From positions 1,408,001 through 1,472,000 of the forward strand of contig OY762007.1 in assembly GCA_963665115.1 (NCBI GenBank): a stretch of DNA of 64,000 nucleotides. Direction: 5' to 3'. The position numbers were made by a program, and so were the translations under genes. Below the pieces are notes generated by a model that saw only the letters and a program-made list of their open reading frames with translations, did not search any database and was not told the origin of the DNA. Positions 22,074-45,388 of the stretch are shown here, piece by piece. Position 1 is the stretch's first letter. Each line of letters starts with the position of its first letter. The stretch comes from an uncultured Rivularia sp. Lineage in GTDB: Bacteria; Cyanobacteriota; Cyanobacteriia; Cyanobacteriales; Nostocaceae.

Positions 22074-22290
22074 GGTGAAAAAGTAAAAGTTCGCAATAAG
22101 TTAACAGTTAACAATTAACAAAATTTGACAGCCATACAATAAGTTTATAAATCAATACAAACTCAAACGTATTTCTTAGCTCATATATCTAAAAAAAAAG
22201 TGCCTGATAAGCATATATAGAACCATCTAATTTCATGGTTCTAATTTTATATGTATTGCAAGATGTAACCTAATTATTCTATTTACTTAC

Positions 22291-23379
22291 ATGAAACAGC
22301 CCATAGTTGAGCAACCTTCTCAAGCTTCAGATAGACTTTTTTTCTTAGATTTTCTTAAAGCCTTAAGTATTATTGCAGTAGTATCATTTCATGCAATTTT
22401 TCTTCCTCGCACTACTTTTATAACCAGTGCTGGAACTATAGAAACTTTGTTTGCTCCCTTGAGATTCTGCGTTCCAGTTTTTCTAACTATTTCGATGTTC
22501 CTTTTTGAAAGACAAATTGCTAATTCTCCAGAAGAGCCAAAATTACTATTTAAAACACGTTTTAATCGTTTGGGAATTCCTATTTTATTTTGGTTTAGTA
22601 TTGCAGCAGGATTAAAGCTGATCGTTGGGAATTCTATTATAGAAGTTATCGTATCAATTTTCCAAGGAGAAATATTTACGGGTGCTTATTATTTTTTAAT
22701 AATTTTGCAGCTACTATGGAATTTTGTATTAGTTAGAGATTGGATAATTCAAGAAAAAAATATTGTCACCACATTGATTATTCAAGCAGTATGTTTATTG
22801 TTTGTTTATGCTACTATTAGCGGTTTTTTTGTAGATGAAGTTTTACAAGTTTTAGTATTTCTGGAACGTCCCTTAATTATTTATTGGCTTGCTTACATAG
22901 CTTTTGGCGTATATATTTATCAAAATTTTGACCGGATAGAGAGGATATCTCGTTCTTTAAGTAAAACCAATAAAATTTTGCTTTTATGCTTGACTGCGGC
23001 AACAATGATGGCTGAATACAGAGTATTAACTTTCTTTTTAGCAGATTCCTTACGTCCTTTCGATTATGCGGCATTTTCCTGTATCTTGAGCGTACCAACG
23101 ATGTTTATATGTTTTGCATCAGTCAACGAAAAAAGCTTTCCGTCACCAATAGTTAAACTAACAAAACTATTATCAAAATACAGCTTAGGGATATTTTGTA
23201 TAAACGGTATTTTAGCGCAAATATTTTTATCTATAGGTACAAGATTATTTAGTCAGGTAAATTTCAATCTTGCCGAAATACTTGGAATCAAAATTATCGG
23301 TTGGATTGGATTACTTTTATTATCGTTACTATTATCAATTATATTAAAACAATTGGGATTAAAAAAAGTTGTTTGTTAG
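22291..23379 (+). CDS. Acyltransferase family 3 (polysaccharide O-acyltransferase)
   Basis: LDFLKALSIIAVVSFH, RFCVPVFLTIS, LSKYSLGIF; polytopic. Confidence 0.88.
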   Translation: MKQPIVEQPSQASDRLFFLDFLKALSIIAVVSFHAIFLPRTTFITSAGTIETLFAPLRFCVPVFLTISMFLFERQIANSPEEPKLLFKTRFNRLGIPILFWFSIAAGLKLIVGNSIIEVIVSIFQGEIFTGAYYFLIILQLLWNFVLVRDWIIQEKNIVTTLIIQAVCLLFVYATISGFFVDEVLQVLVFLERPLIIYWLAYIAFGVYIYQNFDRIERISRSLSKTNKILLLCLTAATMMAEYRVLTFFLADSLRPFDYAAFSCILSVPTMFICFASVNEKSFPSPIVKLTKLLSKYSLGIFCINGILAQIFLSIGTRLFSQVNFNLAEILGIKIIGWIGLLLLSLLLSIILKQLGLKKVVC

Positions 23380-23422: not shown

Positions 23423-24664
23423 CTAATCCCACTCTAATTTAAGACTTGCATAACCACGGTCTATTAATGTGGGAACACGATTTAATTCTTGGTTGGGAGT
23501 AATTCGTAAATTAGGCAATCTCTGAGATAATACTTCTAAAGTAATACGCGTTTCTCGACGAGCTAAGTCGAAACCCGTACAGTGATGTTTTCCATGACTG
23601 AATGCGAGATGGTTGACCGGAGCGTCTTTGAAACGTTCGATATCAAAGCGTTCGCTATCTTTGAATTGCTCGGAATCCCGGTTTGCTGAACCGAAAAGTA
23701 AAACCACCCGGCTATCTTTTGGTATTGTCGTTCCTGATACACTAACTTCTTGAGTGGTAACTCGAACCATTGATTGAACTGGTGTATCGTATCTCAGGAC
23801 TTCTTCAAGAGCAATGGGAATCAATGATGGATTTTCGTGTAAACTTTGCCATGTTTTCTGATCTTCTACTAACAGTTTGATTGCGGTTTCAATTAAACTT
23901 GCAGTTGTCTTATGTCCGGCTATAATAACTTCACATAAAAGTAAAACTTGTTCCGGTAATGTGAGGTCGCTGCTTTGTAGTTGGCCGATTAAATCGTTGC
24001 TAGGAGTGGAACTTTGTTTTTCGATTAAGCTAGCAAAATAATATTGTAACTCAACAAAGCTTTTAGCACATTCGATTTGACGTTCCGGTGTTAAAGGTGT
24101 TGAAAATAAAGCTGAGGTGCTATTTCCACAATGTTTTACGAATTCCATTTTTTCTAAAGGTACTCCGCACATTGTAAAAATAACTTCGAGGGGTAGTGGA
24201 TGAGCAAATTGCGATACGATTTCTACTTTGCCATCATTAATAAAATTATCTACCAATCTCGACGTAATAGTACGAATGGAGTCTTCTTCTTTGATCAGCC
24301 GCTCTGGTGCGAATGCTTTTGCAAAAGGAGTGCGTAACCGTTTATGTTGTTTCCCATCGCTATTAATTACTGAAACGAAGGGAAATCCTTGATGCATCAC
24401 TTCTATCACTTCTGGAGTTAAATCTCCAGCATTCTGAAGACTCTTAGCTGAAGAATATATTTTAGGATTTTTTAATATATTTAAAACATCTTCGTATCTT
24501 GTTATTACGTAAGCTTTCAATAATTCGCTGTAAAATACTGGTTGCTCATTTCTGGCACGTTGATAAAACGGATAGGGATTTTCAAGTTGTGGATTGGAAA
24601 AAGGTTGATATTCTTCTCCTGCATGAAAAGGGCAAATATTCTTTGTCATTTTATTGGTATCCAT
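23423..24664 (-). CDS. Cytochrome P450 (paralog A)
   Basis: EEVLRYD (ExxR), SANRD, heme motif FSHGKHHCTG; I-helix AGHKTT. Confidence 0.95.
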   Translation of the reverse strand: MDTNKMTKNICPFHAGEEYQPFSNPQLENPYPFYQRARNEQPVFYSELLKAYVITRYEDVLNILKNPKIYSSAKSLQNAGDLTPEVIEVMHQGFPFVSVINSDGKQHKRLRTPFAKAFAPERLIKEEDSIRTITSRLVDNFINDGKVEIVSQFAHPLPLEVIFTMCGVPLEKMEFVKHCGNSTSALFSTPLTPERQIECAKSFVELQYYFASLIEKQSSTPSNDLIGQLQSSDLTLPEQVLLLCEVIIAGHKTTASLIETAIKLLVEDQKTWQSLHENPSLIPIALEEVLRYDTPVQSMVRVTTQEVSVSGTTIPKDSRVVLLFGSANRDSEQFKDSERFDIERFKDAPVNHLAFSHGKHHCTGFDLARRETRITLEVLSQRLPNLRITPNQELNRVPTLIDRGYASLKLEWD

Positions 24665-24752
24665 TGTTCAATAGTATGAAAGTTTATTAATAGTTTTTAG
24701 CGATTCCAGATTCTGCATACCTCTTTAAACTTATAGAGGTGTAAATTTTCAA

Positions 24753-25304
24753 TTATTCATTGACGCTTGAAGATTGTGAAGTTTGAACGTTGATAGAGGT
24801 ATTACCTTTGGCTTTACTTAAACCATGCATCATCATAAAAGCGCCTAAGAGGATAAACACGCTTACAGTTCTCAAACCTATAGTTGCTAAAATTTCCATC
24901 CAAAATACTCCTCCGGGATAACCCTTGGCGGTAACGACAAAGCTTTGGGTAAGACCAAATATGGCAGCAAAAACTTGGATTGTAAGACCTGTGTAGGCAC
25001 TGGGGACAAAAAACCAAAATAATAGTTTAGTCCGTAATTGGGTGAAGCAACCGTAGGGAATAGCCATCCCCACAGCCATAGTCAGCAGTCCTAACATTAC
25101 GCCCAAAGTATGAGCAGAAAGTCCTCCTCTGGGATTGATATAAAAAGGTATGAACAAAGGTGCAATACAGCCTAATGAAAAAATACTAAAACCATGCCAT
25201 AGAAATCTACGTCGATACTCCCCAATCTCAAGTTGGCTCAATAAATTGGGCGTTGTAGATGATGAATTTATATTATTAGTTTGGTCAAATGTATTAGCTT
25301 GCAT
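24753..25304 (-). CDS. Four-TM membrane protein resembling styrene-oxide isomerase StyC-like family
   Basis: RRFLWHGFSI and NPRGGLSAHTLGVMLGLLTMAVGMAIP resemble StyC helices 1-2 including the His; similarity judged from memory. Confidence 0.5.
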   Translation of the reverse strand: MQANTFDQTNNINSSSTTPNLLSQLEIGEYRRRFLWHGFSIFSLGCIAPLFIPFYINPRGGLSAHTLGVMLGLLTMAVGMAIPYGCFTQLRTKLLFWFFVPSAYTGLTIQVFAAIFGLTQSFVVTAKGYPGGVFWMEILATIGLRTVSVFILLGAFMMMHGLSKAKGNTSINVQTSQSSSVNE

Positions 25305-25354
25305 TTTTTACCTCAAATGATTATTTGTTATTGTTCAATTGTAGAAATCGGAAA

Positions 25355-26377
25355 TTACCCATGCTGACATTCAATAATGGTGCAGGGGGATTGAGTTTTT
25401 ATAATGTTGGTAACTTGTAAACCTGCTTTTTGTGCAAGTTTTACCAACTCATCTTGAGTGCGTACCCACGCCCCTGGATGGGTAATTAACAACTGCAAAT
25501 CTAGAAAGGTTGCAAAAGATGATTCTTGAGAACAAACAATCGGATCTATAATTAATAGTCTGCTATCCTTGGGCATCGCCTGTTTACAGTTGCATAAAAT
25601 TTTTATGGCTTGTTCGTCGTTCCAATTGTGGATAATTTGCTTGAGAACATAAATATTCCCTCCCGTGGGTACGGAAGTAAAAAAGTCTCCCTCAACCATC
25701 TCATAGCTTTTATGACTACTGGCTTGATTCCGGGCAATAACTGATGGTAGTTCAAATAAAACACCACTCATGGTAGAGTCAGCTTCTAAAATCGAAACTA
25801 ATAAACTTCCGTCTCCCCCGCCCAAATCAATTATTTTAGACTCGGAGGGGAAATCATAAGCTGCTAAGACAGCACGATTAATAATAGTGGAATAGTTTTT
25901 TAATCCCGCTTTGAAAGTCGCAAACTGTTCTGGATTTTGCTTGAAGTAGTCAGGCAGCGGCATTCCTAATTGAGCGCTTACACCAGAAGCCCCAGTTTTG
26001 AGGGCAGTAAACATACCTCCCCAAGCCTGCCATAACCATTGCTCGCCTTCTAAGATAACCGCATCACGTACCGAATCTGGAAAATCCGATTGCAAATATT
26101 CCGTCATCTGGGTGTTGGCAAAGTATGAAGGAGCGGATTCGGTAAAAATACCGTTACTTGCTAAGGCTCGCAGTATACGATATAGAGATTGGGTTTCGAC
26201 TTCTGTAGATTGGGCTAGCTCATCGATAGCTTTTGCACCATCTTTGAGTAAATCGGCAATGCCAAGTTTAGCGGCAACGTAAATTCCTTGACTAATGTGA
26301 TGACCAGTTAGCATTTGCATTAACTGTTCGGGAAATTGTTTTACGTTTTTGTCATCGCTCGTTTTGAGTGTAAACAT
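25355..26377 (-). CDS. SAM-dependent O-/N-methyltransferase (Methyltransf_2 with dimerisation domain)
   Basis: IYVAAKLGIADLL, IIDLGGGDG, GDFF, LKQIIHNWND. Confidence 0.93.
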   Translation of the reverse strand: MFTLKTSDDKNVKQFPEQLMQMLTGHHISQGIYVAAKLGIADLLKDGAKAIDELAQSTEVETQSLYRILRALASNGIFTESAPSYFANTQMTEYLQSDFPDSVRDAVILEGEQWLWQAWGGMFTALKTGASGVSAQLGMPLPDYFKQNPEQFATFKAGLKNYSTIINRAVLAAYDFPSESKIIDLGGGDGSLLVSILEADSTMSGVLFELPSVIARNQASSHKSYEMVEGDFFTSVPTGGNIYVLKQIIHNWNDEQAIKILCNCKQAMPKDSRLLIIDPIVCSQESSFATFLDLQLLITHPGAWVRTQDELVKLAQKAGLQVTNIIKTQSPCTIIECQHG

Positions 26378-26596
26378 TTTAATTAGTATTTCATAAGTGA
26401 ATTACGACAGATTATGGTTAGCGATATTTAATGTATTCGCGTTTGCCTTACTGGTTTATTTACCGCTTTATATTAGTAGAGGTAGGTTTTTTTATTTATG
26501 CTCCATTTCTATTTGAAATAACTACGATTCTCCGGAGCATCCCAATTGTGGAAAAATGCAAATTTGGGATGCTCCTTGATTCTCTTCAAAGCTGCA

Positions 26597-27844
26597 TTAA
26601 TCCCACTCTAAATTAAGACTTAGATAACCACGATTGGTTAATATTGGCGAATGATGCAATTCTTGGTTAGGAGTAATTCGTAAATTTGGCAATCTTTGAG
26701 ATAGTACTTCCAGAGAAATTCTTACTTCTCTTCGAGCCAGGTTGAAACCCGTACAGTGATGGGTTCCGTGACCAAATGCTAAATGGTCAACCGGAGCATC
26801 TTTGAAACGTTCGATATCGAAGCGATCGCCATTTTCATACTTTTGAGAATCTCGGTTAGCCGAAGCATATTGTATAAGCAAGCGACTATCTTCAGGGATT
26901 GTTACTCCTGAGATGGTGACTTCTTGAGTTGCAACCCGAACCATTGATTGGGCTGGTGAATCGTATCGGAGTACTTCTTCGAGAGCTATAGGAATCATTG
27001 ATGGGTTTTGATGTAAGCTTTGCCATGTATCTGGATTATCTAAAAGTAATTTCAAAGCTTTACTCATTAAATTTGCACTGGTTTTATGTCCGGCTATAAT
27101 CATTTCACATAACAGTAAACCGATTTCCATTGCTGTCAGTTCGCTTGTTAGTAATTCACTAATTAAGTCGTCACCGGGAGCCGAACGTCGTTTTTCGACT
27201 AAACTTACTATGTAATGCTGTAAAGTAACAAAACTTCTAGCGCATTCTATTTGACGTTCTGGTGTTAATTTTGACGAGAAGAACAGCCCTACATCATTAC
27301 CACTCTTTTTTACCTGTTCCATCTTTTCTAAAGGTATCCCATACATACTTAAGATGACTTCGAGGGGTAATGGATGACCAAATTTTGATACAATTTCTAC
27401 ACTGCCATCATTAATAAAATTATCTACTAATCTATTCGCGATCGCATAAATTGAATCTTCTTTTTTAGCTAAGTTCTCTGGTGCAAATACTTTGAGAAAA
27501 GGGGCACGCAAACGTCTATGTTGTTCGCCATCACTATTAATTAAAGATGTAAAAGGAAAGCCTTCTTCTAATACTTTTTGGGTTTCTGGAGTCACATTTT
27601 GAGCGGTTTGCAGACTTTTCGCTGATGAAAATACTGTAGGACTTTTAAGGATATGTAATACATCTTCGTACCGTGTAATTACATAAGCATCTACCACCGG
27701 GCTATAAAATACAGGTTGTTCATTTCTGGCTCTTTGTAAAAATGGGTAAGGATTTTCAAGTTGCTCCCCAACAAAAGGTTGAAATTCTTTTCCATGAAAC
27801 GGACAAGCACTAGTCGCAGATTGTGTCTTATTTTGTTCAATCAT
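26597..27844 (-). CDS. Cytochrome P450 (paralog B, close to 23423..24664)
   Basis: EEVLRYD, FGHGTHHCTG, I-helix AGHKTS; long near-identical blocks with paralog A. Confidence 0.95.
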   Translation of the reverse strand: MIEQNKTQSATSACPFHGKEFQPFVGEQLENPYPFLQRARNEQPVFYSPVVDAYVITRYEDVLHILKSPTVFSSAKSLQTAQNVTPETQKVLEEGFPFTSLINSDGEQHRRLRAPFLKVFAPENLAKKEDSIYAIANRLVDNFINDGSVEIVSKFGHPLPLEVILSMYGIPLEKMEQVKKSGNDVGLFFSSKLTPERQIECARSFVTLQHYIVSLVEKRRSAPGDDLISELLTSELTAMEIGLLLCEMIIAGHKTSANLMSKALKLLLDNPDTWQSLHQNPSMIPIALEEVLRYDSPAQSMVRVATQEVTISGVTIPEDSRLLIQYASANRDSQKYENGDRFDIERFKDAPVDHLAFGHGTHHCTGFNLARREVRISLEVLSQRLPNLRITPNQELHHSPILTNRGYLSLNLEWD

Positions 27845-27924
27845 TTCTATTTATTGGTAGTTGGTAATTGGTCAAAGGTCACAAATATTAACTAACTATC
27901 TGTAATTCTGTTCTTAATTAATCT

Positions 27925-27953
27925 ATAGGGGTGAGAAAATTTATTTATGCAAT
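27925..27953 (-). promoter_or_regulatory. Shared upstream motif TTGCATAA-N16-CTAT
   Basis: ATTGCATAAATAAATTTTCTCACCCCTAT, ~80 bp upstream of P450 paralog B. Confidence 0.6.
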
Positions 27954-28100
27954 CAATCTGCTGTAAATTATTCAATTATTTCAACTTCTCCTACAGTTTT
28001 TTCTATTACCACTATTAACTAAAAATCCCTACATCTTTATTAGACAACGGAGGGGGTAGAAATCCAATTACCAACTCCCAATGCCCAATCCCCAATTTAT

Positions 28101-29381
28101 TCATACACTATCGTGTCCCCACAAACCTTTTGCATCCCTGGGCGAACTAAAGCCTACTTGTAAATGCTTTGGCCCGTGGAAGACTATATTATTTGCCCAT
28201 TCAATTGATTCTTCTTTCAAAGTCAAATTCGGCAATCGATTTATTAAAGTGTTTAATGCAATGGTGACTTCAGCACGGGCTAAACTTGAACCCAAGCAGA
28301 AATGAATACCGCTTCCGAAACCGCTATGCTTAGTTGCTTCTCGTTGAAAATTTAATTCGTCGGGGTTTTCAAACTGTTCCTCATCTCTATTAGCGGAACC
28401 CAAAATCAAACCAACGCTATCGCCGCGCTTAATTATCTTCCCGTCAATTTCAAAATCTTCATAAGCCCAACGACTAACCATTTGCACCGGGGAATCATAT
28501 CGAACCAACTCTTCTACTGCTGCGGGAATTAATTCGGGGTGCGATCGCAACAGTTTCAACTGCTTGGGATGACGCAATAGAGCCAATATTCCCTTACTTA
28601 TCAAATTAACTGTAGTTTCGTGACCTGCTGTTAATAAGTGTATGCAGGTAGCTAATATTTCCTCGTCATTTAATTTATTTCCTTCATCTCTTGCCTTAAC
28701 TAAAGCTGTAATTAAATCCTTTCCCGGCTCAACGTGTCTTTTAGCAATTTCCTTTTTGAAATATTCAATAAATCCTTGAGTTGCTGCTTCAGCTTGTTCG
28801 TACACTTCCGGGGATGGTGTCAAACGACTGGCGCTAGCGTGTTGTAGAGCTAAGGCCCATTGTCGGAATAGTGGTCTGTCCTTGGGGTCAACACCCAACA
28901 TATCGGCAATTACCATAATCGGTAAAGGGAAAGCAAAATCTTCAACTAAATCCATTTCCCCTTGCAGATGAACTTTATCTAATAGACAATCAGCTATTCC
29001 GATAATGGCAGGCCTCAAATTTTCCACCATCTTGGCAGAAAATACTTTATTAACAATAGTTCTTAATCTTGTATGAGTTGGTGGATCTCGGAACACCATC
29101 CAATTACTCACCATCGAACTAAATCCCCGATAAGCCTTCGGTACGGGTGCCCCTTCACCATCATCTCGTACCTTGCTAGCTTCTCTACCAAACTTCGGAC
29201 TTTCCATTACTTTCATCACATCCCGGTATCGGAATAGATACCAAGCACCATCTAATTTAGGATTTGCAGAAAGCCCCCAATGTACTGGATCTTCTTTTCT
29301 ATAAAGACTGTAATAAGTATAAGGGTCGCTAATTACTTCTTTGACAAATGGATTTAATCTTTCAATTGTAGAAATTGACAT
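28101..29381 (-). CDS. staP: StaP/RebP-like cytochrome P450 (CYP245-type indolocarbazole aryl-aryl coupling)
   Basis: Shares StaP-characteristic segments as recalled: NWMVFRDPP, ALQHAS, EAATQGFIEYF, TCIHLLTAGHETT, VQMVSRWAYED, IVFHGP; heme motif FGSGIHFCLG. Confidence 0.82.
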   Translation of the reverse strand: MSISTIERLNPFVKEVISDPYTYYSLYRKEDPVHWGLSANPKLDGAWYLFRYRDVMKVMESPKFGREASKVRDDGEGAPVPKAYRGFSSMVSNWMVFRDPPTHTRLRTIVNKVFSAKMVENLRPAIIGIADCLLDKVHLQGEMDLVEDFAFPLPIMVIADMLGVDPKDRPLFRQWALALQHASASRLTPSPEVYEQAEAATQGFIEYFKKEIAKRHVEPGKDLITALVKARDEGNKLNDEEILATCIHLLTAGHETTVNLISKGILALLRHPKQLKLLRSHPELIPAAVEELVRYDSPVQMVSRWAYEDFEIDGKIIKRGDSVGLILGSANRDEEQFENPDELNFQREATKHSGFGSGIHFCLGSSLARAEVTIALNTLINRLPNLTLKEESIEWANNIVFHGPKHLQVGFSSPRDAKGLWGHDSV

Positions 29382-29417
29382 TTTTGCTCGCAGAGATTTT
29401 TTATTCCTTATTTATTC

Positions 29418-29448
29418 ATAGGGGGTGAGGGGTTGGAGATTATGCAAT
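29418..29448 (-). promoter_or_regulatory. Shared upstream motif TTGCATAA-N18-CTAT
   Basis: ATTGCATAATCTCCAACCCCTCACCCCCTAT, ~37 bp upstream of the staP-like gene. Confidence 0.6.
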
Positions 29449-29723
29449 TTTTAGTTGGGAGTTAGGAGTTAGGAGTTAGGAGTTAGGTATTAAGAATGAA
29501 AAAATTAGTTTGTAGGTTGGGTTAAAAGCACGAATAATATGTCTGCTCCCACTCAATATTTAACTCACGCTTTTAACCCAACATCCAGATTTTGGTTATA
29601 GATTATGAAGTGGCGATCGCCGCATTATGGTGATGTTGGTTAATTTTATTTTTCGGAGCCAGATGGTAAGTGCGTCTTTAACCCAACTTACTTTCCTATT
29701 TTCTATACAACCTCAAATACAAG

Positions 29724-29748
29724 AGAGACGTAGCAGTGCTACGTCTCT
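29724..29748. repeat. REP-like palindrome AGAGACGTAGCAGTGCTACGTCTCT
   Basis: 12-bp perfect arms; identical copy at 57625-57649. Confidence 0.8.
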
Positions 29749-29821
29749 ACAACATGGTGGGTTATTTACGAATAATTTTATTTCTGTTCCCCGTTCCCTT
29801 TTTCTGTAATTATCATATATG

Positions 29822-31059
29822 CTAAAATTTACCAGATTTGACATTGATGAATAAGCTGAAGATTACGATTGAGATTATACTCACAGCAGCACCGATGAAA
29901 CAAACTGCTGCGATTCCTCCGATACCAAATATGATTCCTGCAAATACCGGGGGCCGATTGCTCTACCAAGTGATTGAGTTGTGACGTTGAGAGACATGAA
30001 ACCAGAACGGTATTCTTGAGGAGCAAGTTTAGCGATGGATGATTGAAGGGTAGGAAATGCTAGAGCTTCAACTAATCCGATGAGTACAGAGGGGATTACC
30101 AACATAGGAATTGAATCAACTGTGGGAATGATGCATAAAGCAACTGCGAAGATGACGAAGGATACTTGAATTAATTTGATTTCAGAAACTTTGTGAGCGA
30201 ATAAGGTGACGAAGAAGGAGAAGACTGCTAAAGATAAAGCGTTTGTCGTTAATACCATTCCAATTACCGCGCTCGTTGCTCCCAGATTCTCTCCTGCGAA
30301 GACTGGAGTGAAGGTATAGAATGCTCCAAATTCAACCATGAATAAGGTAATTACCGCAGAAAACAACAGTAAAACATTTCGATTTTGAATACTTTTAAAT
30401 ATATTTTTAACGTAGCTACCAAGTTGAAATTTCTCAGTATGCTTTTGTGTTTTAGGCAATTTAAGTTTTAAGCCTACTAGTAATGCAACCGGAATAGCTA
30501 ATAATGATAGTGCGAACGGGTATCTCCAATTTAAAGAAGCTAACACTCCTCCTAACATAGGATAAATAGTTGAACCCACACCGATTGCACCTCCATTGAA
30601 AGCCATTGCAGCCGTTAATTTGTTCCCACTATATGAGCTACTAATTATTGAAAGTACCAGAGCCTCTAAAGAAGCACCACCAAGTCCCTGTAAAATTCTC
30701 CATTCTATAAGAGAGCGGAAGTTGGGAGCGAAAGCACATAAAACACCACCCAGAGCAAATACAAGTAAGGAAGGAATCAAAATTTTCTTAAAGCCAAAAC
30801 GGTCAGCTAAAACCCCGAATATTGGTGTTCCAATTGCAACTGGCATTAGATAAGCTGCCATAATCAATCCCGATTGTTGGGGAGAAATATTTAATCCTGT
30901 AGCTATAGTAGAAAGAATTGGACTTATGCTGAACAAAGGCATAATTGCTATCATCGTTATACTGACAACAAATAACAGATTTTTATCTTGAAAAATATTG
31001 CCTTTTGATTGTTCTGCTCTACCTGCTTGAGAATTAATTGGTTTTAATGGTGTAGTCAT
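29822..31059 (-). CDS. MFS transporter (probable exporter), frameshift at C/G run ~29949-29953
   Basis: MFS motif A GVLADRFGFK, WRILQGLG. Another frame supplies the last TMs GPVFAGIIFGIGGIAAVCFIGAAVSIISIVIFSLF...KF* ending at 29822. Confidence 0.9.
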
Positions 31060-31117
31060 TTTCCTTATTTACCTTAGTATTTTTTTCTAATTGATTTGTT
31101 TTTTGCGTTATTAATTC

Positions 31118-31143
31118 ATAGGGAATAAGAAAAATATTTATGC
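31118..31143 (-). promoter_or_regulatory. Shared upstream motif GCATAA-N16-CTAT
   Basis: GCATAAATATTTTTCTTATTCCCTAT, ~59 bp upstream of the MFS gene. Confidence 0.5.
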
Positions 31144-31524
31144 TTTCGATATAGCTTGAGCTAAAATTATTTTTATGCATACACCACCTAATTCTTTACT
31201 CAGTAAAGGTTTTAACTATATATTGCGAAATGTTAATACATCAAGCAGAGTCTTTTAATAAGTAGTTATAAGAATAAAAAAAACTGCGTCTATTTGTTTG
31301 ACGCAGGCTTAAAAATAATATTGGTTTAAAACTTAGTATTCCACCACACTAATTTTAAAGGGTTCGTAGTAGCGTGCCCGCCAGGGCATAGCGCTACTAC
31401 GAACCTAATTTATTGCAATCGGAATTACAGCAAGTGCCATAACACACCCTACTCTAGACGTAATAATCTCTTTTCTTTACACTGATGAGATAAAGAAATA
31501 AATTTTCATTTATAGAGATGATTT

Positions 31525-32385
31525 ATGGTTGCGTCAATTAAACGAGTTGCTTTAGTCGGTGGAACTCATGGTGGGGAACTTACGGGAGTATTTTTAGTTA
31601 ATAAATTTCAACAATCTCCGCAACTGATTCAACGAGATGGGATTGAAACAATTAGTTTAATTGCTAACGAAAAAGCTGTTGCTATAGGGACAAGATATAT
31701 AGATACAGATTTGAATCGAGCTTTCAACCGTCAAGAATTAGAAAATCCCCAATTAACCAATCACGAGCAATCATTAGCCAAAAAAATAACTCGCCGAATT
31801 AAAGAAGAGAAAATTGATTTAATCATTGACTTGCACAGCACAACAGCAAATATGGGATTAACGATAATTTTGCACTCGAATCATCCTTATTTAACCAAAT
31901 TGGCTGCATATCTTACACAAATTAATTCTAAAGTCAGAATATTACAACACACTCTTAATAAAGAATCATCTTACTTGATAAGCTCAGCGGAATTCGGAAT
32001 CACCATCGAAGTGGGAGCAGTTGCCAATGGTTTATTGGATGCAAAATTATTTCAAGAAACCGAGAATTTAGTTCACGCTATTTTAGATTATCTCGAAGCC
32101 GAGAACAAAGGACAACCGTTATCAACTCCCCCCAGTTTTACTAAATATTCTGCCATCGGAACAGTTGATTTTCCCAGAAATGAGCAAGGAGAAATCCAAG
32201 CTATGATTCACCCCCAATTGCAATTTCAAGATTACCAACCTTTACATCCCGGCAATCCAATATTTATTACCTTTGATGGAGAAGAAATTTTTTATCAAGG
32301 AAATGAAACGGTATATCCGGTATTTATCAATGAAGCAGCATATTACGAAAAAGGAACTGCTATGTGTTTGACAGTGAGCAATTAG
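31525..32385 (+). CDS. Aspartoacylase (AstE/AspA family)
   Basis: GGTHGGE, RYIDTDLNRAF, DLHSTT, IEVG, PVFINEAAYYEK. Confidence 0.92.
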   Translation: MVASIKRVALVGGTHGGELTGVFLVNKFQQSPQLIQRDGIETISLIANEKAVAIGTRYIDTDLNRAFNRQELENPQLTNHEQSLAKKITRRIKEEKIDLIIDLHSTTANMGLTIILHSNHPYLTKLAAYLTQINSKVRILQHTLNKESSYLISSAEFGITIEVGAVANGLLDAKLFQETENLVHAILDYLEAENKGQPLSTPPSFTKYSAIGTVDFPRNEQGEIQAMIHPQLQFQDYQPLHPGNPIFITFDGEEIFYQGNETVYPVFINEAAYYEKGTAMCLTVSN

Positions 32386-32480
32386 GAGTTAGGAGTTAAG
32401 AGTTAGGAATTAAGAGTTAGTTTCACCTTGTCCCCCCATCTCCCTCTCTCCCCATCTCCCCATCTCCCCCTCTCCATTAA

Positions 32481-32514
32481 TAAAAAGCGGGTTAAATAAT
32501 CAACCCGCTTTTTA
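32481..32514. terminator. Bidirectional intrinsic terminator
   Basis: taaaaagcgggtt-aaataatc-aacccgcttttta between convergent genes. Confidence 0.75.
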
Positions 32515-32532
32515 ATCATCTGAAATTTAAGT

Positions 32533-32748
32533 TTAAGCAGCAGGAGCGCCTAATTTAGGACCAGTTTCGGCTCCAACAACTCCATCTACCGTTACATTGT
32601 TATCCTTTTGAAATGCTTTGACTGCATTTTCGGTAGCTTCGTCGAAGTTTCCATCAACGTTAAGTTGATATCCTTTTGCAGATAAGTCCTTTTGTAAGCG
32701 TTCTACTTCCGAACCATTCATTCCACGACTTAAAGTTTGTGGTGCCAT
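32533..32748 (-). CDS. Stand-alone peptidoglycan-binding domain protein (PG_binding_1)
   Basis: LSRGMNGSEVERLQKDL, DGNFDEATENAVKAFQ, VDGVVGAET; RBS GGAG. Confidence 0.88.
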   Translation of the reverse strand: MAPQTLSRGMNGSEVERLQKDLSAKGYQLNVDGNFDEATENAVKAFQKDNNVTVDGVVGAETGPKLGAPAA

Positions 32749-32818
32749 TTTTAAATTCTCCTTTTTTAATTAATTGATAGTTAACTGTTTGGGGTTAACT
32801 TGCTGTCTTATTAAATAT

Positions 32819-32848
32819 GTAGGGATGGGGTTATTTGGTTTATGCAAT
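32819..32848 (-). promoter_or_regulatory. Shared upstream motif TTGCATAA-N17-CTAC
   Basis: ATTGCATAAACCAAATAACCCCATCCCTAC, ~71 bp upstream of the PG-binding gene. Confidence 0.5.
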
Positions 32849-32973
32849 TTTGAAATCAATTATCAGTGAGCAGTTAGCAGTGAGCAATTTAAAATAATCT
32901 ATTCTCCCCCCTCTTCCCCCTCTCCCATCATTTATAATTCCACTAACACTTTCATCATGGAGATACAGGTAAA

Positions 32974-33270
32974 ATGACCGATCAATCGAATGCATTTGTG
33001 CAAATCAATGAAGACGATAGTGCATTTGTCACTACCGATAAAGGAACTGCATATGTTTCTGATGAAATGAATGTTGTTTTGGAAGAGGTGATGCTCGAAG
33101 TGGTAAATTCTGCTAAATCTATTCAATCTCTCGATCCAGAAATTAGTCAAGTTGAAGCTCATAGCATTTTAGTAAAAGTGATGTCCAATTTTTTTGCCAA
33201 ACTTGAAGATGATACGCAAGCTAAAACCGAAATATTAAATTTAATTCAAGAATTTAAGAATAATCGTTAA
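32974..33270 (+). CDS. Hypothetical acidic protein
   Basis: 98-aa ORF with AGGT RBS-like site and plausible helical composition; no family recognised. Confidence 0.6.
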   Translation: MTDQSNAFVQINEDDSAFVTTDKGTAYVSDEMNVVLEEVMLEVVNSAKSIQSLDPEISQVEAHSILVKVMSNFFAKLEDDTQAKTEILNLIQEFKNNR

Positions 33271-33344
33271 TCAACATAAATTTGTTTTATGGGGGATATT
33301 ATTCTTCCCTATTTAGACTCGCGACGATTAAACTAAATAATAAT

Positions 33345-34172
33345 ATGAGTATAAATTTAAAGGATGATCCAAGAAGCACGGAAGAAATAATTCAACTAGC
33401 TTCTAATGAAGAAAATGAGCATATTTACTGGGATTATGTTTCTATTTTAAATTTCCGTGGTAGTGATAAAGAATTTATAGCCGCGTCAATATTATGTGAA
33501 AGTCAAAGTGCAAAAGAAAGAAGTTTAGGAGTTCGTATATTATCACAATTAGGAATACCGGAAAGAACTTTTCTCGTTCAATCTGGAGATATTCTTTTAA
33601 AGTTATTATTGACTGAAGAAAATAACAGTGTTTTGGCTTCGATAGGATTTGCATTCGGACATTTACATGATTCCAGAGGTATTTTACCTTTAATAAAATT
33701 GAAAAATCATCACGATGCCGATGTGCGGATGGGTGTTGTTTCTGGTTTAAGCCAACAAGAGGATGAATTAGCAATTCAAGCATTAATTGATTTATCCAGC
33801 GATGAAGAAGAAGATATCAGAAATTGGGCAACTTTTGGTTTGGGTTCCCAGATAGAAGCCGATACATCAGCTATTCGAGATGCTTTGTTTGCTCGGGTAA
33901 TTTCAGAAACAGCAGATTCGGATACTATCGCTGAAATTCGTGGTGAAGCATTAGTAGGTTTAGCAATTAGAAAAGATCGACGGGTAATTGATCCGTTAAT
34001 TTCAGAGCTTGAAAACCGGCGTGTTGGTATATTAACCGTTGAAGCAGCCAAAGAAATCGGAGATGCAAGACTTTATCAAGCTTTAATTAATTTACAGGAA
34101 TGGTGGGATATGAATATTGAGTTACTGCAAGAGGCAATATCTAGTTGTAATCCTAAAATCGGTTTAAATTAA
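33345..34172 (+). CDS. HEAT-repeat (PBS-lyase-like) protein
   Basis: DADVRMGVVSGL, DIRNWATFGLG, EIRGEALVGLA repeats; likely start ATG 33345. Confidence 0.85.
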   Translation: MSINLKDDPRSTEEIIQLASNEENEHIYWDYVSILNFRGSDKEFIAASILCESQSAKERSLGVRILSQLGIPERTFLVQSGDILLKLLLTEENNSVLASIGFAFGHLHDSRGILPLIKLKNHHDADVRMGVVSGLSQQEDELAIQALIDLSSDEEEDIRNWATFGLGSQIEADTSAIRDALFARVISETADSDTIAEIRGEALVGLAIRKDRRVIDPLISELENRRVGILTVEAAKEIGDARLYQALINLQEWWDMNIELLQEAISSCNPKIGLN

Positions 34173-34312
34173 TTTTCCACGGCAACTTTGCTTCATTCTT
34201 GAAATCGAAACGGCATTTATCTGCTTATCAATTAAAACCTCTATATTCTAAGCTTATTGTAAAATCCGATAAATTAAAGCTGTAATCAACCAACAATCAT
34301 TTTTAAATTTTC

Positions 34313-34673
34313 ATGGAATTTCAAGACATCAGTTTAATTAGCGGATACCACGCTCACGTTTATTTTGATGAATCCACGTGCGAACAAGCAACGGTTTTAT
34401 GTGAGGAAGCAGGAAAGCAATTTTCAGTACAAGTAGGTAGAGTACATCGTAAGAATGTAGGCCCCTCATCCCTGTTGGAGTTGTCAGCTGGCTTTTGATA
34501 AAAATCAATATGCCGATTTAATGACTTGGCTGGCTTTGAATAGAAAAGGTTTAACAATTTTAATTCATCCACTCACCGGAGATGATTTAATCGATCATAC
34601 CGATTACGCTTCTTGGATGGGAGAGCAGCAGGTTTTGAATCTTGATTTTTTACGTGGTTTACAAAAGTCGTAG
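34313..34673 (+). CDS. DOPA 4,5-dioxygenase family protein, frameshift at C run ~34463-34466
   Basis: YHAHVYFD then, after removing one C, GPHPCWSCQLAF...WLALNRKGLTILIHPLTG...DHT...WMG. Confidence 0.88.
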
Positions 34674-34871
34674 AAATTAGGGAGAGGGGGAGATTGGGGG
34701 GATGGGGGGATGGGGAGATGGGGAGATGGTGAATCCACTCTCGTGCGCGGGTTCCCCGCGTTGAGAGAAGTGGTGAACCCGTTCACGCGGAGCGTGCGGC
34801 TCAGGGGGAGATGGGGGGGGGACAAGGAGACAAGGAGACAAGGGAAAATAACTCGCTACTCCAATGCCCAA

Positions 34872-35534
34872 TTACCAATTACTTATTACCGGATATTTCA
34901 ATGTAGATAACATCTGTTTCATTTGCTCTCTTCCAGATGCAAAGACTTTTGCAACAGATGGTTTCTCCGACAACCTTTTAAAATAAGCTGTCAAATTCTT
35001 TAAATGTTGGTAATCGTAAACAATTCGTAGATAAGAAAGAGTAGGGGCAGCGCTGCAATCGGAAGCAGTAAACGCATCCCCTACCAACCAATTACGACTT
35101 GCTAGTTTTTCATCAAGTAAATTACAAGCTGACTCTAATAATCCCTTGGCTTTGATAACTTCCTTACTACCTCTTTCGTTGGGCGATCGCTGACTATCCT
35201 TAAATAATGCTTCTCTTCCCCCATTAACGTAAACATCAATAATCCGTTCGAGCATTCGCATTTCTAAATTTGCGTTAATATCCTTGGGAATTAAGGGAAT
35301 TTGGTTTTGATAGCTGTCGAGATATTCAATTATGATGCTTGCTTCTAAAAGTATTTCCCCATCATCCGTTATTAGAGTCGGGATTTTACCAAAGCGATTT
35401 ATCTGTAAGTATTCATTTCTCGATTCTGCATCAAATAAGTTTATTTCAATAGGGGTAAATTCTAACTCTTTTTCGTTCATAGCGATTAATACCCGTTGGG
35501 AATAGGAAGAAGCTGGTGCGTAATAGAGTTTCAT
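34872..35534 (-). CDS. Glutathione S-transferase
   Basis: LYYAPASSYSQRV, FGKIPTL, EASIIIEYLD, WLVGDAFTASD. Confidence 0.92.
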   Translation of the reverse strand: MKLYYAPASSYSQRVLIAMNEKELEFTPIEINLFDAESRNEYLQINRFGKIPTLITDDGEILLEASIIIEYLDSYQNQIPLIPKDINANLEMRMLERIIDVYVNGGREALFKDSQRSPNERGSKEVIKAKGLLESACNLLDEKLASRNWLVGDAFTASDCSAAPTLSYLRIVYDYQHLKNLTAYFKRLSEKPSVAKVFASGREQMKQMLSTLKYPVISNW

Positions 35535-35548
35535 TATGATTATTTTCC

Positions 35549-35719
35549 TTAATTTTTAACTACTCTTGGATTAATTAACCGCAGAGGGCGCTGAGGGCGC
35601 TGAGGAAGAGGGGGAGAGAGAGAGGAAGATTTAATAATTAATTTTTAACTACTCTTGGATTAATTAACCGCAGAGGGCGCTGAGGGCGCGGAGGAAGAAG
35701 GGGAGAGAGAGGAGGAAGA
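35549..35719. repeat. ~80-bp direct tandem duplication between the synthase and GST genes
   Basis: ttaatttttaactactcttggattaattaaccgcagagggcgctgagggcgc.gaggaaga... at 35549 and 35638. Confidence 0.85.
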
Positions 35720-35735
35720 AATAATTTTTAACTGG

Positions 35736-38700
35736 TTACTGGTTACTGTTCACTGAAAAAAAGTTATCGTAAAAATCAAACATTTGTGAAACGGCTTCGG
35801 GGATAACTTCGCAGTTATGAGAACGTTTTGCTAAAATTCCGAATTGATTTGATATTGTTGAAGCTGCAATTTCTGGATTAGGAATATATTCGGGTGTGGG
35901 AATATCAAAGGATGGCCCTGCTGTTTTTCCGCGTTTACCCGAAGGTAGGGTCATTAATAGTTCTCCCAAGGGACGCATCATTCCTGTCATAATATCTATG
36001 CTGGCGTTCATTAGTTTGGAGCGTCTTAAGCTTCCTTGGGGATTTGAACCGAAGTGTTGAACCATTAATTGCATCATCAGGAAGTAACTTTGGTTGAATA
36101 TTTCCATCACTGTTCTGGTTTGGGGAACGGTAACAACGTTGGAATTATGGTCTTGATGATTCAAGCTGGGATTACGAACAGATGGGTATGAAGGATTCCA
36201 AGTTCTTTTTTCTCCTTTTTTAGATTGATTAATTTGTTCTAAAGAAAGAGCGTCTGCTAAATTGCGGAATTTTTGATAATGGGATTTTGCAAATGTTTCT
36301 GTTTCAATTTCGCTTCCTTCTCCATGTTCTACAATTACGTCTACTGCAAATAAGGCGCTTTTAACGTCATACACCTGCATTTGATAATCTGGATGTTGTT
36401 TATTCAAGTTGTCTCGCATGAATAAACGGTGTTCTCCACCAACTTTGTTTTTATCAACTGTAAATAAGTCGGGAATATTTTGTAATCCATCGCGGATTTG
36501 ACCGTACAATTCGCTTAAGGAACCATATGTATGTAACTGTTCCGATATCGGAATAGTTTCGTTTACAAGGTCTTCGTTAAGAAAATCGGGCATTTCCAAC
36601 CGCATAAAATACTGTAGTGATAAAGCATTTAATGGTTCTAAAGCAAAGTCAATATCTATGGGGAATTTGGCGTTGAGTTGTTTGAAATCGGGAACTGCTG
36701 GATAAAATGGTTCGGCGATCGCCATCAATATATTGTTAACTAAAAGAAAATGAATCATTTCTTCGCGGGCAATTTCCATTAATACTCCCCGCATTCCATA
36801 ATTATCAACTTCTTTGTTATCACCACAAGCTAAATGTAATTGTTCTTGCGTCCATAATCCCCGACGAACGTATTCTTCCCCAGTGACGTAGTTGGGAACC
36901 GAATATCCGGCGTAGATATATTGCAGCATCACGGCAACTTCTAATTCTGCTGCTTGTTTTAATGCTGTGATTAATTCTTCTTTGGTTTTAATTTGATATT
37001 TAGTTTGCTCTGGTTGTTTCTGTTCCGATGGCGGAATATAACCAATTTGCTGTTGATTTTGCAGAAATTTGAGTAAAAGTTGTGATTTAGCTTCGGACAT
37101 ATCTCTTGTGGGGGGCATATAGTAAGTTTTGCTTTTATTTTTGGGGTCGGACATCTGCCACATTAAGCGAGCGTAGGTAGCAACTTTGCATTTATCTGCC
37201 AAGCTAAAAACTTCGGCTTTCATAAACGAGAAGCTGGCTTCGTAGAAAGATAATATATGTTCGTAAATTAAATTAAAATCAACATCTTGTTGCGGAATTT
37301 TATCTAAGTGCCAATCATCACCCATGACTCTTACAGCTAAGAAGCCGGAACTGTTCCAAAATCCCAGTTTATTATCGTTGTCGTAAGCAATTTCCGCTTC
37401 ATCTAAGTTATCGTAGCCACAAGCAATCTCGTTTAAGGAATTAGAAATTAATATTTTGCAAGTTCCGGCTTTGGCTCCTTTTAAAGTAAACCAACCTCTT
37501 CCTTGTTTATTGGTGGAAATTTCGCAACTTGAATTAAATTCTCCTTTATCTAAAAGTTTTCCAGGTTTTAAGCCAACGATTTGAATTTCTGAGCTATGAG
37601 GATAATGAAAAGTTTTATCTGTATTATTACTATCCCTTTCAAATTGATATCGTAATTGAGGAAAAGCTCTAGGATTATAAAATTGATTTACATATATTGA
37701 CTGTACCGATGTCGGAACACCTCTAACAAAAGAGCGCACTTCTAATTCAACAGCGTTATCTTCTCCTTTATCAAGGTTGGGAAATTCGACAAATAAACAA
37801 GCGTCATCAACTTGAAGATTAATTTCCTTCTCTTTTACTAAAACTCTTCTTTCACCATCAACGGTTCCGATAATACACAAACCTTGATTTTCAACGTCAG
37901 AACGTAAATCTTGCCAATTTTTAGAGGGGTAAAAAGGAATATCTACCAAACCGCTAGTTAACTGATGAGCTTGCTTGTTGTATGCTTCTGAAGGGATTTT
38001 TCCGATTAATCTATGACTGTTAACGGTACGAATTTCTAAATCACCTAAATTCAACTTTGAAAAAATCTTGTGAAATCCAGCTTTAGATTCAGGCGATCGC
38101 CCTACATTAGGAATCGCTGTAATCATATTTAAGCTTATCCCCTGAGAATTTAACTTCAACGTCAGATTCCCGATTGCTTTATATTCCGATTCGGGAATTA
38201 ATAACCTTCCACTGGGATAAGTTTTCAATTCCGAAAGACACCATAAACCAATAGTTCCATGTAATTCCCAGAAACTTGGTGCATCAGGTTGAACTGGTGC
38301 AGACATATTGCTGATACTAAACTGCACCACCAAACCCAAAACGTCTTCTCGCTGCATCGCTTCCTTTAACAAAGCAACCGTGGGAGAAATATTTACCTCA
38401 TCATTCCAGAGAAAATCTTCAGCATCCTTGGAAATAGCAAACTGATAAACAGCAGCTTTGCCAAACTCATCATTTAAAATATGGTCTGGTAAATCGCGAA
38501 TATAATCAAAATCTTGCCAGCGAGCTAACTGATAACCTTGTATCGGGGCAGTTACCATATAAGGAACTTGATTGGAATCACCCAACCTACCAAAAGCTAA
38601 CTGACCTAACATAATCGTATTAGTCCAATTAGAAGCCGGGGTCGCATTCAAATATCCTGGCACGATTGACGCTGGTTTTTACATACTCGTTATAATGACC

Positions 38701-39054
38701 CCAAAAATCAACGCTTCTGCCAATAACCGGGTCATTTAAATTAACTTTGCCAAACTCTGTTTGAGTACTAGTAATTTTGGCATCAATTGAAAAATGACCG
38801 TTACCACCGAAATTCCAACCCATTGCTTTACTAAAAGGGCCATTTTCATCTAATTTCCCTTCAGCATTAAATTTTGGGCCTTGATTATAAAGATATTCGT
38901 GATATTCCGAAGCCGAATGATTTTCTTTATAAGGAAGACCATTCATATAACAGGTATTGTCGCTGATGTCGATTAAACCGTTTTTATATCCCGTAGGGGC
39001 ATGAATGCGGGCTAAACCTTGGAAATGTAAGCGAGGGAAATCTAAAACGCTCAT
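35736..39054 (-). CDS. staD: Chromopyrrolic acid synthase family (StaD/RebD/VioB) heme protein, ~1105 aa, frameshift at ~38638-38641
   Basis: N-terminus MSVLDFPRLHF...APTG..NGLID, GPFSKAMGWNFGGNGHF, YYMPPTRD, ferritin-like AAELEVAVMLQYIYA/EEMIH, GKTAGPSF. The two ORFs join as FECDPASNWT after removing one C. Confidence 0.9.
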
Positions 39055-39255: not shown

Positions 39256-40371
39256 ATGCTCCGACGTACTCGCAAGAAGTCAAGTGCTTCTTCATCTAAC
39301 TTAAAATGGTCGTCAAAAACTGAGTTAGTTGGCTTAGAATTTGAGTTATCGCCAGAAAAAGATGGTTATCTTTTCCCACAGTACACTATTGGACTCCATG
39401 CTTGGTTTTTGGATCAAGTACGGCAAGTGGACGCAGAATTTTCTACTTATCTCCATAATGGAGAGTCAGAAAAACCTTTTACCGTCTCTGCTTTCAATGG
39501 AGAAATGATTAGTAGCGGTAGACAAATTCAAGTATTTGCGAATAATAAATATCGCTGGTATCTCACTGCTTTATCTCAACCACTACAGCAATGGATGGCA
39601 GAATGGGTAAAAAAAATGCCTTCTACGATTGATTTACGGACTGTAAGTTTTAAAATTAATGCTTGTAATATTGTTCATGCTCCCACAACTTATGCTCAGT
39701 TGTTAAAGTCGGAAGATAATAAAAATATCACTTTAAAATTTATCAGCCCTACTAGTTTTCGTCGCAAAGGACATCATTTTCCCCTACCATTACCTACGAA
39801 TATTTTTCATAGCTATCTGCGACGCTGGAATAATTTTTCTGGGATTACTTTTGAGCAAGATGATTTTTTGGCTTGGGTGGATGAATGTGTATTGGTAAAT
39901 CGCTGTCAAATCTCAACCGATAAAGTATTGGCAGGTAAAAAAGGAGCGGTGACGGGATTCACTGGTGCAATTGAATTGAGTTTAACTAGAGAAGCAGCCA
40001 AACAACCACAATATCAACAATTATTCTACGCTCTAGGAAAACTCGCACCCTATTGCGGAACCGGACATAAAACCACCTTTGGATTGGGGCAAACCCGGTT
40101 AGGATGGACATCAAAAGTTGTACAAGATATACCCGAAGTAGAAAACCTACTAGCTAAACGCATCGAAGATTTAACAGAAACTTTCAAAGCACAACGCAAG
40201 CGCACCGGGGGAAACAGAGCTAGCGAAATTGCTTCAAAATGGGCGACAATTTTAGCAAGACGAGAAATGGGAGATTCTTTACAAGCAATTGCCCAAGATT
40301 TAGAGATGCCTTACGAAACCGTGAAAACTTATGCTAAGTTAGCGCGACGGGAGTTGAAAAAGCTGGAGTAG
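39256..40371 (+). CDS. cas6: CRISPR endoribonuclease Cas6 with C-terminal HTH-like extension
   Basis: LHAWFL, KPFTVS, FISPTSFR, G-loop YCGTGHKTTFGLG, then ~90 extra aa ending SLQAIAQDLEMPYETVKTY. Confidence 0.93.
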   Translation: MLRRTRKKSSASSSNLKWSSKTELVGLEFELSPEKDGYLFPQYTIGLHAWFLDQVRQVDAEFSTYLHNGESEKPFTVSAFNGEMISSGRQIQVFANNKYRWYLTALSQPLQQWMAEWVKKMPSTIDLRTVSFKINACNIVHAPTTYAQLLKSEDNKNITLKFISPTSFRRKGHHFPLPLPTNIFHSYLRRWNNFSGITFEQDDFLAWVDECVLVNRCQISTDKVLAGKKGAVTGFTGAIELSLTREAAKQPQYQQLFYALGKLAPYCGTGHKTTFGLGQTRLGWTSKVVQDIPEVENLLAKRIEDLTETFKAQRKRTGGNRASEIASKWATILARREMGDSLQAIAQDLEMPYETVKTYAKLARRELKKLE

Positions 40372-40399
40372 TTTTGTATACTTTGTTTTATTGAAATCC

Positions 40400-41210: not shown

Positions 41211-41318
41211 AAATAAAAAATATTAACTTTAAAATAGGATAAAAAGAAAATGAATATTAAAGAGTCTATCAGCCGTATTAATATAAAGTGATTAGTACGA
41301 TGGATTATAAAATATCTT

Positions 41319-42128: not shown

Positions 42129-42163
42129 AATTTGCCTTTAACTTTTGACTTTTTTCCCGGCTA

Positions 42164-45386: not shown

Positions 45387-45388
45387 GA

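Follow-up and report, generated by a model that had tools for sequence, protein, structure and literature searches.

A putative split indolocarbazole pathway in an uncultured Rivularia sp. and the association of an SOI-like membrane protein with the absence of RebC

How could an indolocarbazole pathway proceed from a gene cluster that lacks RebC, and what would such a cluster make? This question is raised by a run of genes at positions 23423-39054 of a 64,000-nucleotide stretch of DNA (the window) from the genome of an uncultured Rivularia sp. (G000; other G-numbers denote other genomes, L-numbers loci of relatives and X1-X4 sequencing runs). A sequence-only reading had placed here a StaD/RebD/VioB-family synthase, a StaP-like cytochrome P450, two further P450s, a methyltransferase, a StyC-like membrane protein, an MFS exporter and a glutathione S-transferase (GST), and open reading frame (ORF) and profile scans confirmed all eight genes on the minus strand (Table 1). 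The run had been described as co-oriented, which holds for these eight genes, but it is interrupted by three plus-strand genes and one 71-aa ORF. The analysis favors, with a probability of about 0.55, an indolocarbazole pathway that is split but functional. A membrane protein from the styrene oxide isomerase (SOI) family and the two additional P450s would stand in for RebC, and the product would likely be an indolo[2,3-a]carbazole that is O-methylated and free of chlorine. The main new element is the pattern of RebC and SOI across genomes; taken by itself, the locus is not as unusual as it had seemed.

RebC is absent from G000 in a search with a RebC ortholog of the genus (576 bits to PDB RebC), and the same query finds orthologs in 19 of the 27 genus genomes. 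In most relatives rebC is located right after the synthase; G000 carries two 74-nt direct repeats at that place, and L001 and L008 carry a single copy of the repeat followed by rebC. The genus RebC ortholog at L001:13163-14794 is mixed in the alignment, with a Val at RebC position 216 (StaC-like) and an Arg at 239 (RebC-like). A survey of the family found the synthase in 70 of 371 genomes, and 2 of 401 genomes in a phylum-wide draw carried it. A StaP ortholog was present in 64 of the 70 synthase genomes (18/18 within the genus, two of them partial, and 46/52 outside it), the other six being VioE-type. The SOI clade, scored with a profile built from cluster-linked members and with nine candidates per genome, was found in 24 of the 371 family genomes, all of which also have the synthase and StaP, and in none of the 301 synthase-negative genomes. 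Among the StaP-type genomes, the SOI-like gene is present in all 11 that lack RebC, as compared to 13 of the 53 that carry it (Fisher p 3e-6, kinship ignored). When 9 independent pairs differing in RebC were drawn on a synthase tree of the 55 of 64 genomes with a full synthase sequence, SOI followed in 6-7 and showed the opposite in 0 (median p 0.03). These counts were made at the genome level; a locus-level exclusion of RebC and SOI was discarded as overstated, since in several genomes rebC lies beyond the locus that was retrieved. That the SOI-like protein acts in the pathway is very probable; pyrrole opening as its specific function has somewhat less than an even chance.

The membrane protein of the window is assigned to the SOI/HabB family. 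All ten of its homologs examined carry PF26512 (SOI), with no match for the window protein itself in the local Pfam copy, and homologs are annotated as hydroxylaminobenzene mutase. It is 40% identical to BAZ41887.1, the best listed match of Tjp5 from the tjipanazole (tjp) cluster. The model of the protein contains four helices, with styrene oxide isomerase 8pnu as the top fold match, and His65 and Tyr104 are invariant in 20/20 SOI-like sequences. SOI has been reported to bind heme via His58 at its trimer interface (PMC11374702). Its catalytic network comprises N64, N99 and Y103. A three-copy model of the window protein scored 0.94 (best control 0.00), with a contact agreement of 96% and a predicted local distance difference test score of at least 89; among benchmark models, 20 of 30 true pairs but also 1 of 23 single chains attained the mark used for this score, and the scoring covered the protein chains and no heme. 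The SOI-like protein is predicted to be a heme homotrimer, although the trimer model may reflect likeness to the solved SOI trimer. PF26512, four transmembrane helices, an invariant His early in helix 2 and a predicted trimer are shared with SOI (PDB 8PNU; PMC11374702) and HabB, whereas the 16% identity in the structural match and the biosynthetic instead of catabolic context set the window protein apart. A biosynthetic role, if true, would widen the SOI biocatalyst family, known from styrene catabolism.

The core of the pathway, consisting of oxidase, synthase and StaP-type P450 (O-D-P), is present in G000 with high probability. The P450 at 28101-29381 had been proposed to be StaP-like, and its best PDB match is indeed 2z3t (369 bits; next match 288), which we take to be StaP, a CYP245A enzyme. 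Approximately 183 identities over about 400 columns, counted by eye, correspond to about 46% identity; the positions of Arg67, His250 and Arg306, presumably StaP active-site positions together with Thr305, are kept, and Thr305 is replaced by Ser. Since more than 40% identity to StaP and a kept His250 define a StaP/RebP P450, this enzyme belongs in that group and is predicted to carry out the aryl-aryl coupling of chromopyrrolic acid. A StaP ortholog is found in 22 of the 27 genus genomes, and the 21 other than G000 are 90-97% identical. A third StaP-like match (G000:C1:3711428-3712624, 36%) was rejected, as it adjoins Coq4-like genes. The synthase is present in a single copy in G000.

A tryptophan oxidase was missing from the window, and the genome-wide search that the sequence-only reading had called for recovered two RebO-like amine oxidases elsewhere in G000. 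Both are 71-76% identical to synthase-flanking oxidases of other cyanobacteria and nest within the clade of synthase-adjacent oxidases, so that a RebO/StaO-type oxidase is found by homology at the genome level and not inside the cluster. One of them (G000:C1:1154116-1155621) heads a DAHP synthase-trpEG-trpA-trpB run 290 kb from the cluster, and in L009 a single gene separates its ortholog (91%) from the synthase. Within the genus such splitting of the pathway is common, StaP often being hundreds of kb from the synthase. The second RebO-like oxidase is followed by a P450 (L037:10938-14194, corresponding to G000:C1:8538937-8542187) with no synthase nearby; orthologs occur in 14 other genus genomes (81-98%), and the two genes possibly represent a separate indole pathway.

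The absence of StaO/RebO, RebC, a halogenase and an N-glycosyltransferase had been noted for the 64 kb, and this stands for the window, where a scan of 46 ORFs yielded no matches to the amino oxidase, RebC-type monooxygenase, Trp halogenase and GT1 families; for the genome as a whole it is qualified by the two oxidases. Trp halogenases (PF04820) had no match in G000 and were detected in 6 of 14 controls. No N-glycosyltransferase is encoded in the cluster, in agreement with the proposed non-glycosylated scaffold, but two GT1-family PF06722 genes score over the cut-off elsewhere in G000. A Tjp6-type azoreductase and RebC halves were also not found in the window, and Flavodoxin_2 genes are located only far away in G000.

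The core is supported by homology, and the steps after StaP are those that we infer. The oxidase at C1:1154116-1155621 would convert Trp to the indolepyruvate imine, as homology and linkage in relatives suggest, and the synthase, provided that its frameshift is an artefact, would dimerize this imine to chromopyrrolic acid; the StaP-type P450 would then couple the indole C2 atoms, these two activities being expected from the respective families. Oxidase, synthase and StaP have been described to yield a dicarboxy-indolocarbazole (PMC10851217), and without StaC/RebC the StaP product is reported to decay to K252c, 7-hydroxy-K252c (the main product) and arcyriaflavin A (PMC11350588). In the absence of RebC/StaC, the StaP product of G000 would likewise decay to a mixture led by 7-hydroxy-K252c; as decay products still form, loss of RebC would not block the pathway. 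A P450 could subsequently oxygenate the pyrrole or the central ring, and the SOI-like protein, acting as a ferric-heme Lewis acid, might rearrange or fragment an N-O or epoxide species, which is the weakest step of the scheme. An opened pyrrole and a phenol would result; the methyltransferase would cap the phenol and the MFS protein would export the product. The most likely product is an indolo[2,3-a]carbazole aglycone that bears an O-methyl group and no halogen, and its pyrrole may be opened.

Of the tailoring enzymes, P450 b (Table 1) is predicted to be an aromatic or N oxygenase. In a quick tree P450 b and c fall in one clade, which is restricted to these clusters among the sequences in the tree and is represented by a single copy in the other genus members shown. 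Depending on the locus, StaP is followed by an RhF-like P450, another P450 class or a Rieske oxygenase, which suggests that the oxygenation steps are interchangeable. The best PDB match of the methyltransferase is 6c5b, the phenol O-methyltransferase LaPhzM (PMC10784701 Table 2), and O-methylation is its predicted activity. A search of 370 other genomes at E 1e-85 recovered seven homologs, of which the five closest are in bisindole clusters, and a metagenome scan yielded one close locus (L080) of 16. The GST gene occurs in 37/37 StaP-holding loci and in 0/6 VioE loci (66 loci examined), and its product probably assists the StaP reaction, as a carrier or in another helper role.

Two types of cluster can be distinguished by the SOI tree, which, under a midpoint root, separates into two clades with 100/100 support. 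A methyltransferase-linked clade comprises the window, G013, L080, G578 and G614. The other clade is mostly linked to a glyoxalase and often to RidA, and comprises Calothrix, Tolypothrix, Scytonematopsis, Iningainema and Cyanomargarita records along with several others. In G578 and G614, for which the protein records bear the name Nostoc, the synthase, SOI, a Rieske oxygenase, a GST, two methyltransferases and StaP are found. Such two-methyltransferase Nostoc clusters hold both the SOI genes closest to that of the window and the closest methyltransferase homologs from other genera, which makes a methoxy-indolo[2,3-a]carbazole, one of two product types put forward from the sequence alone, the leading candidate. 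Nostoc sphaericum is reported to contain 6-cyano-5-methoxy-12-methylindolo[2,3-a]carbazole (PMC6572111). The two methyltransferases of the Nostoc clusters match the O- and N-methyl groups of this compound, and a link is therefore proposed, with clusters of the L105/L134 type as candidates for its biosynthesis. These clusters are compact (L105:4673-15921 and L134:2175-16249) and contain a synthase, an SOI-like gene, a Rieske oxygenase, a GST, two methyltransferases and StaP. Loci of the other kind (L023, L036, L114, L118, L120, L121 and L123-L125) contain StaP, a glyoxalase-fold protein, a P450, an SOI-like gene, RidA and an MFS-FHA fusion and no methyltransferase; clusters of this glyoxalase/RidA type are candidates for calothrixin biosynthesis. 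A general scheme for cyanobacterial indolocarbazole pathways, in which the SOI-family heme protein has an unrecognized role in opening or rearranging the pyrrole and makes RebC dispensable, with methoxy/cyano-indolo[2,3-a]carbazoles as products of the methyltransferase clade and calothrixins as those of the glyoxalase/RidA clade, is speculative and as a whole rather unlikely. The comparison nevertheless singles out one small candidate enzyme and compact clusters for testing.

The window cluster itself appears to be of mixed history. Synonymous divergence (dS) to G013 is 0.16-0.18 for the methyltransferase, SOI and MFS genes, as compared to 0.54-0.61 for GST, StaP and aspartoacylase, and the window synthase nests among RebC-bearing Rivularia records in the tree. 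The low dS and the nesting of the synthase together suggest that a tailoring cassette of methyltransferase, SOI and MFS genes was recently exchanged.

Both the synthase and the MFS gene are frameshifted. The synthase consists of two overlapping ORFs (38629-39054 and 35736-38663) that score 151 and 744 bits to TIGR04492 (cut-off 1250) and jointly span nearly the whole model; in relatives the protein has about 1100 aa, and a PDB sequence search with the synthase gave no match. The split is due to a single surplus base near 38638: the sequence reads CCCC here, as against CCC or an equivalent codon pair in the six relatives compared. In the MFS gene, a C run is longer by two bases, which puts the C-terminus out of frame and appears as a 2-base gap against 3/4 relatives. 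In the contig of run X4, which differs at 54 other letters over 2.6 kb, the extra synthase base is absent. Moreover, comparison with 314 proteins of relatives showed frameshifts in 10 of 75 testable G000 genes (13%); among the nine besides the synthase, seven, including trpA, have clear 1-2 base insertions in G/C runs and two alignments are noisy. Such frequent insertions cast doubt on pseudogene calls in this genome. The pairwise ratio of nonsynonymous to synonymous divergence (dN/dS), in which a very recent loss of function would not register, is 0.08-0.15 for both pieces of the synthase, 0.04-0.05 for the StaP-type P450, 0.14-0.23 for most others and 0.20 and 0.45 for the SOI-like gene; all genes tested thus appear to be under purifying selection. 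Because of the CCC of relatives, the X4 contig, the frequent G/C-run insertions and the low dN/dS, the synthase frameshift is likely an assembly error, and the same is likely for that of the MFS gene. A split ABC transporter gene elsewhere in the window (58272-59480 / 57665-58360) is possibly another case of a G/C-run insertion.

These data also bear on the view that the cluster is decaying, with real frameshifts and with losses of RebC, RidA and one P450 marking an inactive pathway. Two frameshifted genes, the three genes missing relative to close relatives and the lack of coverage of the synthase frameshift site in the closest runs are in line with it, but the general frequency of such frameshifts in G000, the low dN/dS and the recent sharing of methyltransferase, SOI and MFS genes with G013, which represents gain besides loss, make decay improbable. 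Better supported, although still unlikely, is a pathway with the same core that retains the pyrrole, in which the methyltransferase traps the StaP product by carboxyl or N methylation, as in the RebC-less erdasporine and reductasporine clusters, and in which P450 and SOI-like mutase hydroxylate the indole via an N-hydroxy intermediate to give methoxy- or hydroxy-K252c/arcyriaflavin-type aglycones. The redODPEMT cluster is described without a C-type enzyme and its RedM is also COMT-type; the erdasporine cluster reportedly combines a RebC-less core with methylation by EspM. The annotation of SOI-like homologs as hydroxylaminobenzene mutase fits an N-hydroxy route, and both RebC-less synthase-bearing genomes of the genus have the methyltransferase. 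Across the family, however, the methyltransferase is missing from 8 of the 11 RebC-less genomes and the SOI-like gene from none, and the 60 best PDB matches of the window methyltransferase do not include RedM.

A calothrixin-type indolophenanthridine quinone, the other product type suggested from the sequence alone, would require that the ring of a formyl-hydroxy-indolocarbazole be opened and closed again. A biomimetic route to calothrixin is described as proceeding through an indolo[2,3-a]carbazole as its key intermediate (PMC4728514). The window cluster does encode oxygenases and a rearranging enzyme that could serve such a route. The intermediate of the biomimetic synthesis is said to carry the formyl and hydroxy groups. 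Calothrixins are not known to carry a methyl group, however, whereas the window has a methyltransferase; Calothrix-type clusters combine glyoxalase, P450, SOI and often RidA without a methyltransferase; and the window SOI falls in the other of the two strongly supported clades, with no ortholog of the cluster-type glyoxalase or RidA found in G000. This product is therefore a poor fit and highly improbable. As for a violacein-type pathway, the synthase matches TIGR04492 and the synthase tree has VioE-linked members scattered among the others, but its score is below the VioB cut-off, StaP and GST are both missing from VioE loci, and VioE was not found in G000 although it was detected in 4/4 control genomes. 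The absence of VioE largely refutes this reading, which has hardly any probability left, and the earlier preference for indolocarbazole over violacein chemistry is borne out by the StaP-type P450. The violacein-type cyanobacterial loci (L103, L106, L108, L111 and L126) combine the synthase with VioE, most have flavin monooxygenases and three have a type III polyketide synthase and a cytochrome-b5 protein. In three genomes (L135:3670-17033, G552 and G508), the synthase is split into ORFs of about 690 and 415 aa and a divergent VioE is present; L135 additionally carries three methyltransferases, a glycosyltransferase, an acyl-CoA-dehydrogenase-like enzyme and a P450.

A number of observations weigh against the favored replacement of RebC by the SOI-like protein and P450s in a working pathway. 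RebC is retained in 13 of the 24 SOI-bearing genomes and the tjp cluster also has both, so that the relationship is not a simple swap, and some of the RebC absences fall in fragmented assemblies (G472, 800 contigs). The 8pnu fold match is modest (Foldseek E 0.012, Z 12.7, root-mean-square deviation 3.8, 130 aligned residues at the 16% identity given above), unrelated helical bundles reach a Z of 11.9, PDB sequence searches with the SOI-like protein gave no match, and the N64/N99 network of SOI is not evidently kept. The closest runs, X1-X3, give no coverage at the synthase frameshift, X3 spanning only 35803-36161, and the absence from G000 of the RebC, RidA and clade-1 P450 of close relatives could be due to decay. 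With regard to the product, we connect the Nostoc clusters by inference to the compound of N. sphaericum, and the Rieske oxygenase of these clusters has no ortholog in G000 (best match 32-36%).

Among characterized systems, the closest in content is the tjp1-10 cluster of Symphyonema bifilamentata, formerly Fischerella ambigua 108b (PMC7497240, PMC8065813). According to PMC7497240, this cluster includes a GST (Tjp3), a methyltransferase (Tjp4), a HabB-like protein (Tjp5), an azoreductase (Tjp6), RebC halves (Tjp7/8) and a Trp halogenase (Tjp10), with Tjp3-6 proposed for pyrrole cleavage and the pyrrole loss in tjipanazole D/I called an open question. The tailoring set of the window had been considered unusual, but GST, methyltransferase and HabB are already represented by Tjp3-5. 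Both clusters have a StaD-like synthase, a StaP-like P450 (47% to StaP in tjp, about 46% here) and, at the family level, GST, methyltransferase and HabB-like genes, with orthology judged by description and via BAZ41887.1. In contrast to tjp, the window cluster lacks the halogenase, RebC and azoreductase, has its oxidase off-site and adds two P450s and the MFS gene. With sta/reb it shares the O, D, P core chemistry, but not StaC/RebC, halogenase, N-glycosyltransferase and sugar genes. Its likeness to the reductasporine (red) and erdasporine (esp) clusters lies in the O-D-P core, the missing C-type enzyme and a methyltransferase (COMT-type in RedM); it differs in lacking a RedE-type imine reductase and in having the SOI-like protein, GST and extra P450s. 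On gene content, the window cluster thus appears to share the O-D-P core and to be a member of none of these named clusters. In the literature covered, which was at the abstract level and included few subscription journals, no paper assigning this gene set to a compound was found, and calothrixins and the cyano-methoxy-indolocarbazoles of Nostoc were likewise without an assigned gene cluster. While the full tjp cluster is reported from one strain only (PMC8065813), StaP-type pathways occur in 64 of the 371 family genomes, often scattered over the chromosome.

Table 1. Features of the gene run in the window, listed from the synthase to P450 c
Feature	Position	Strand	Evidence
StaD/RebD/VioB-family synthase (chromopyrrolic-acid / indolepyruvate-imine-dimer synthase)	35736..39054	-	TIGR04492, two pieces
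Two 74-nt direct repeats (family D7), between synthase and GST	35549..35711	unstranded	repeat search
GST, Tjp3 counterpart	34872..35534	-	Pfam
HEAT-repeat protein	33282-34172	+	
98-aa ORF	within gene run	+	
71-aa peptidoglycan-binding-like protein	32533..32748	-	65% to PG_binding_1 protein of L020
Aspartoacylase	31525..32385	+	NF002601 above cut-off; synteny in genus
MFS exporter	29881..31059	-	Pfam MFS_1
StaP/RebP-type P450 (CYP245-like)	28101..29381	-	PDB 2z3t match
Tailoring P450 b (P450 RhF-like heme domain)	26597..27844	-	PDB matches incl. P450 RhF; P450 tree
COMT-type S-adenosylmethionine-dependent methyltransferase	25355..26377	-	Methyltransf_2 + dimerisation domain
Four-helix SOI/HabB-family membrane protein (PF26512), Tjp5 counterpart	24753..25304	-	homologs' profile, fold match
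Tailoring P450 c	23423..24664	-	69% identical to P450 b

Among the remaining genes of the run, the aspartoacylase, whose position is kept across the genus, is probably a bystander. The 71-aa peptidoglycan-binding-like protein was found again within related clusters (L119 and L121-L125). Promoter and terminator counts showed no excess over shuffles. The cluster abuts a Wzx/Wzy polysaccharide locus (window 10905-23379) with several glycosyltransferases and an acyltransferase; the adjoining glycosyltransferases at 10905-22073 were dropped as cluster parts, being members of that locus. Directly upstream of the synthase, a type III CRISPR-Cas system (Cas6, Cas10 and RAMP genes) with two arrays was found at window positions 39256-52143, and a group II intron with reverse transcriptase, maturase and HNH domains is located at 3484-5302.

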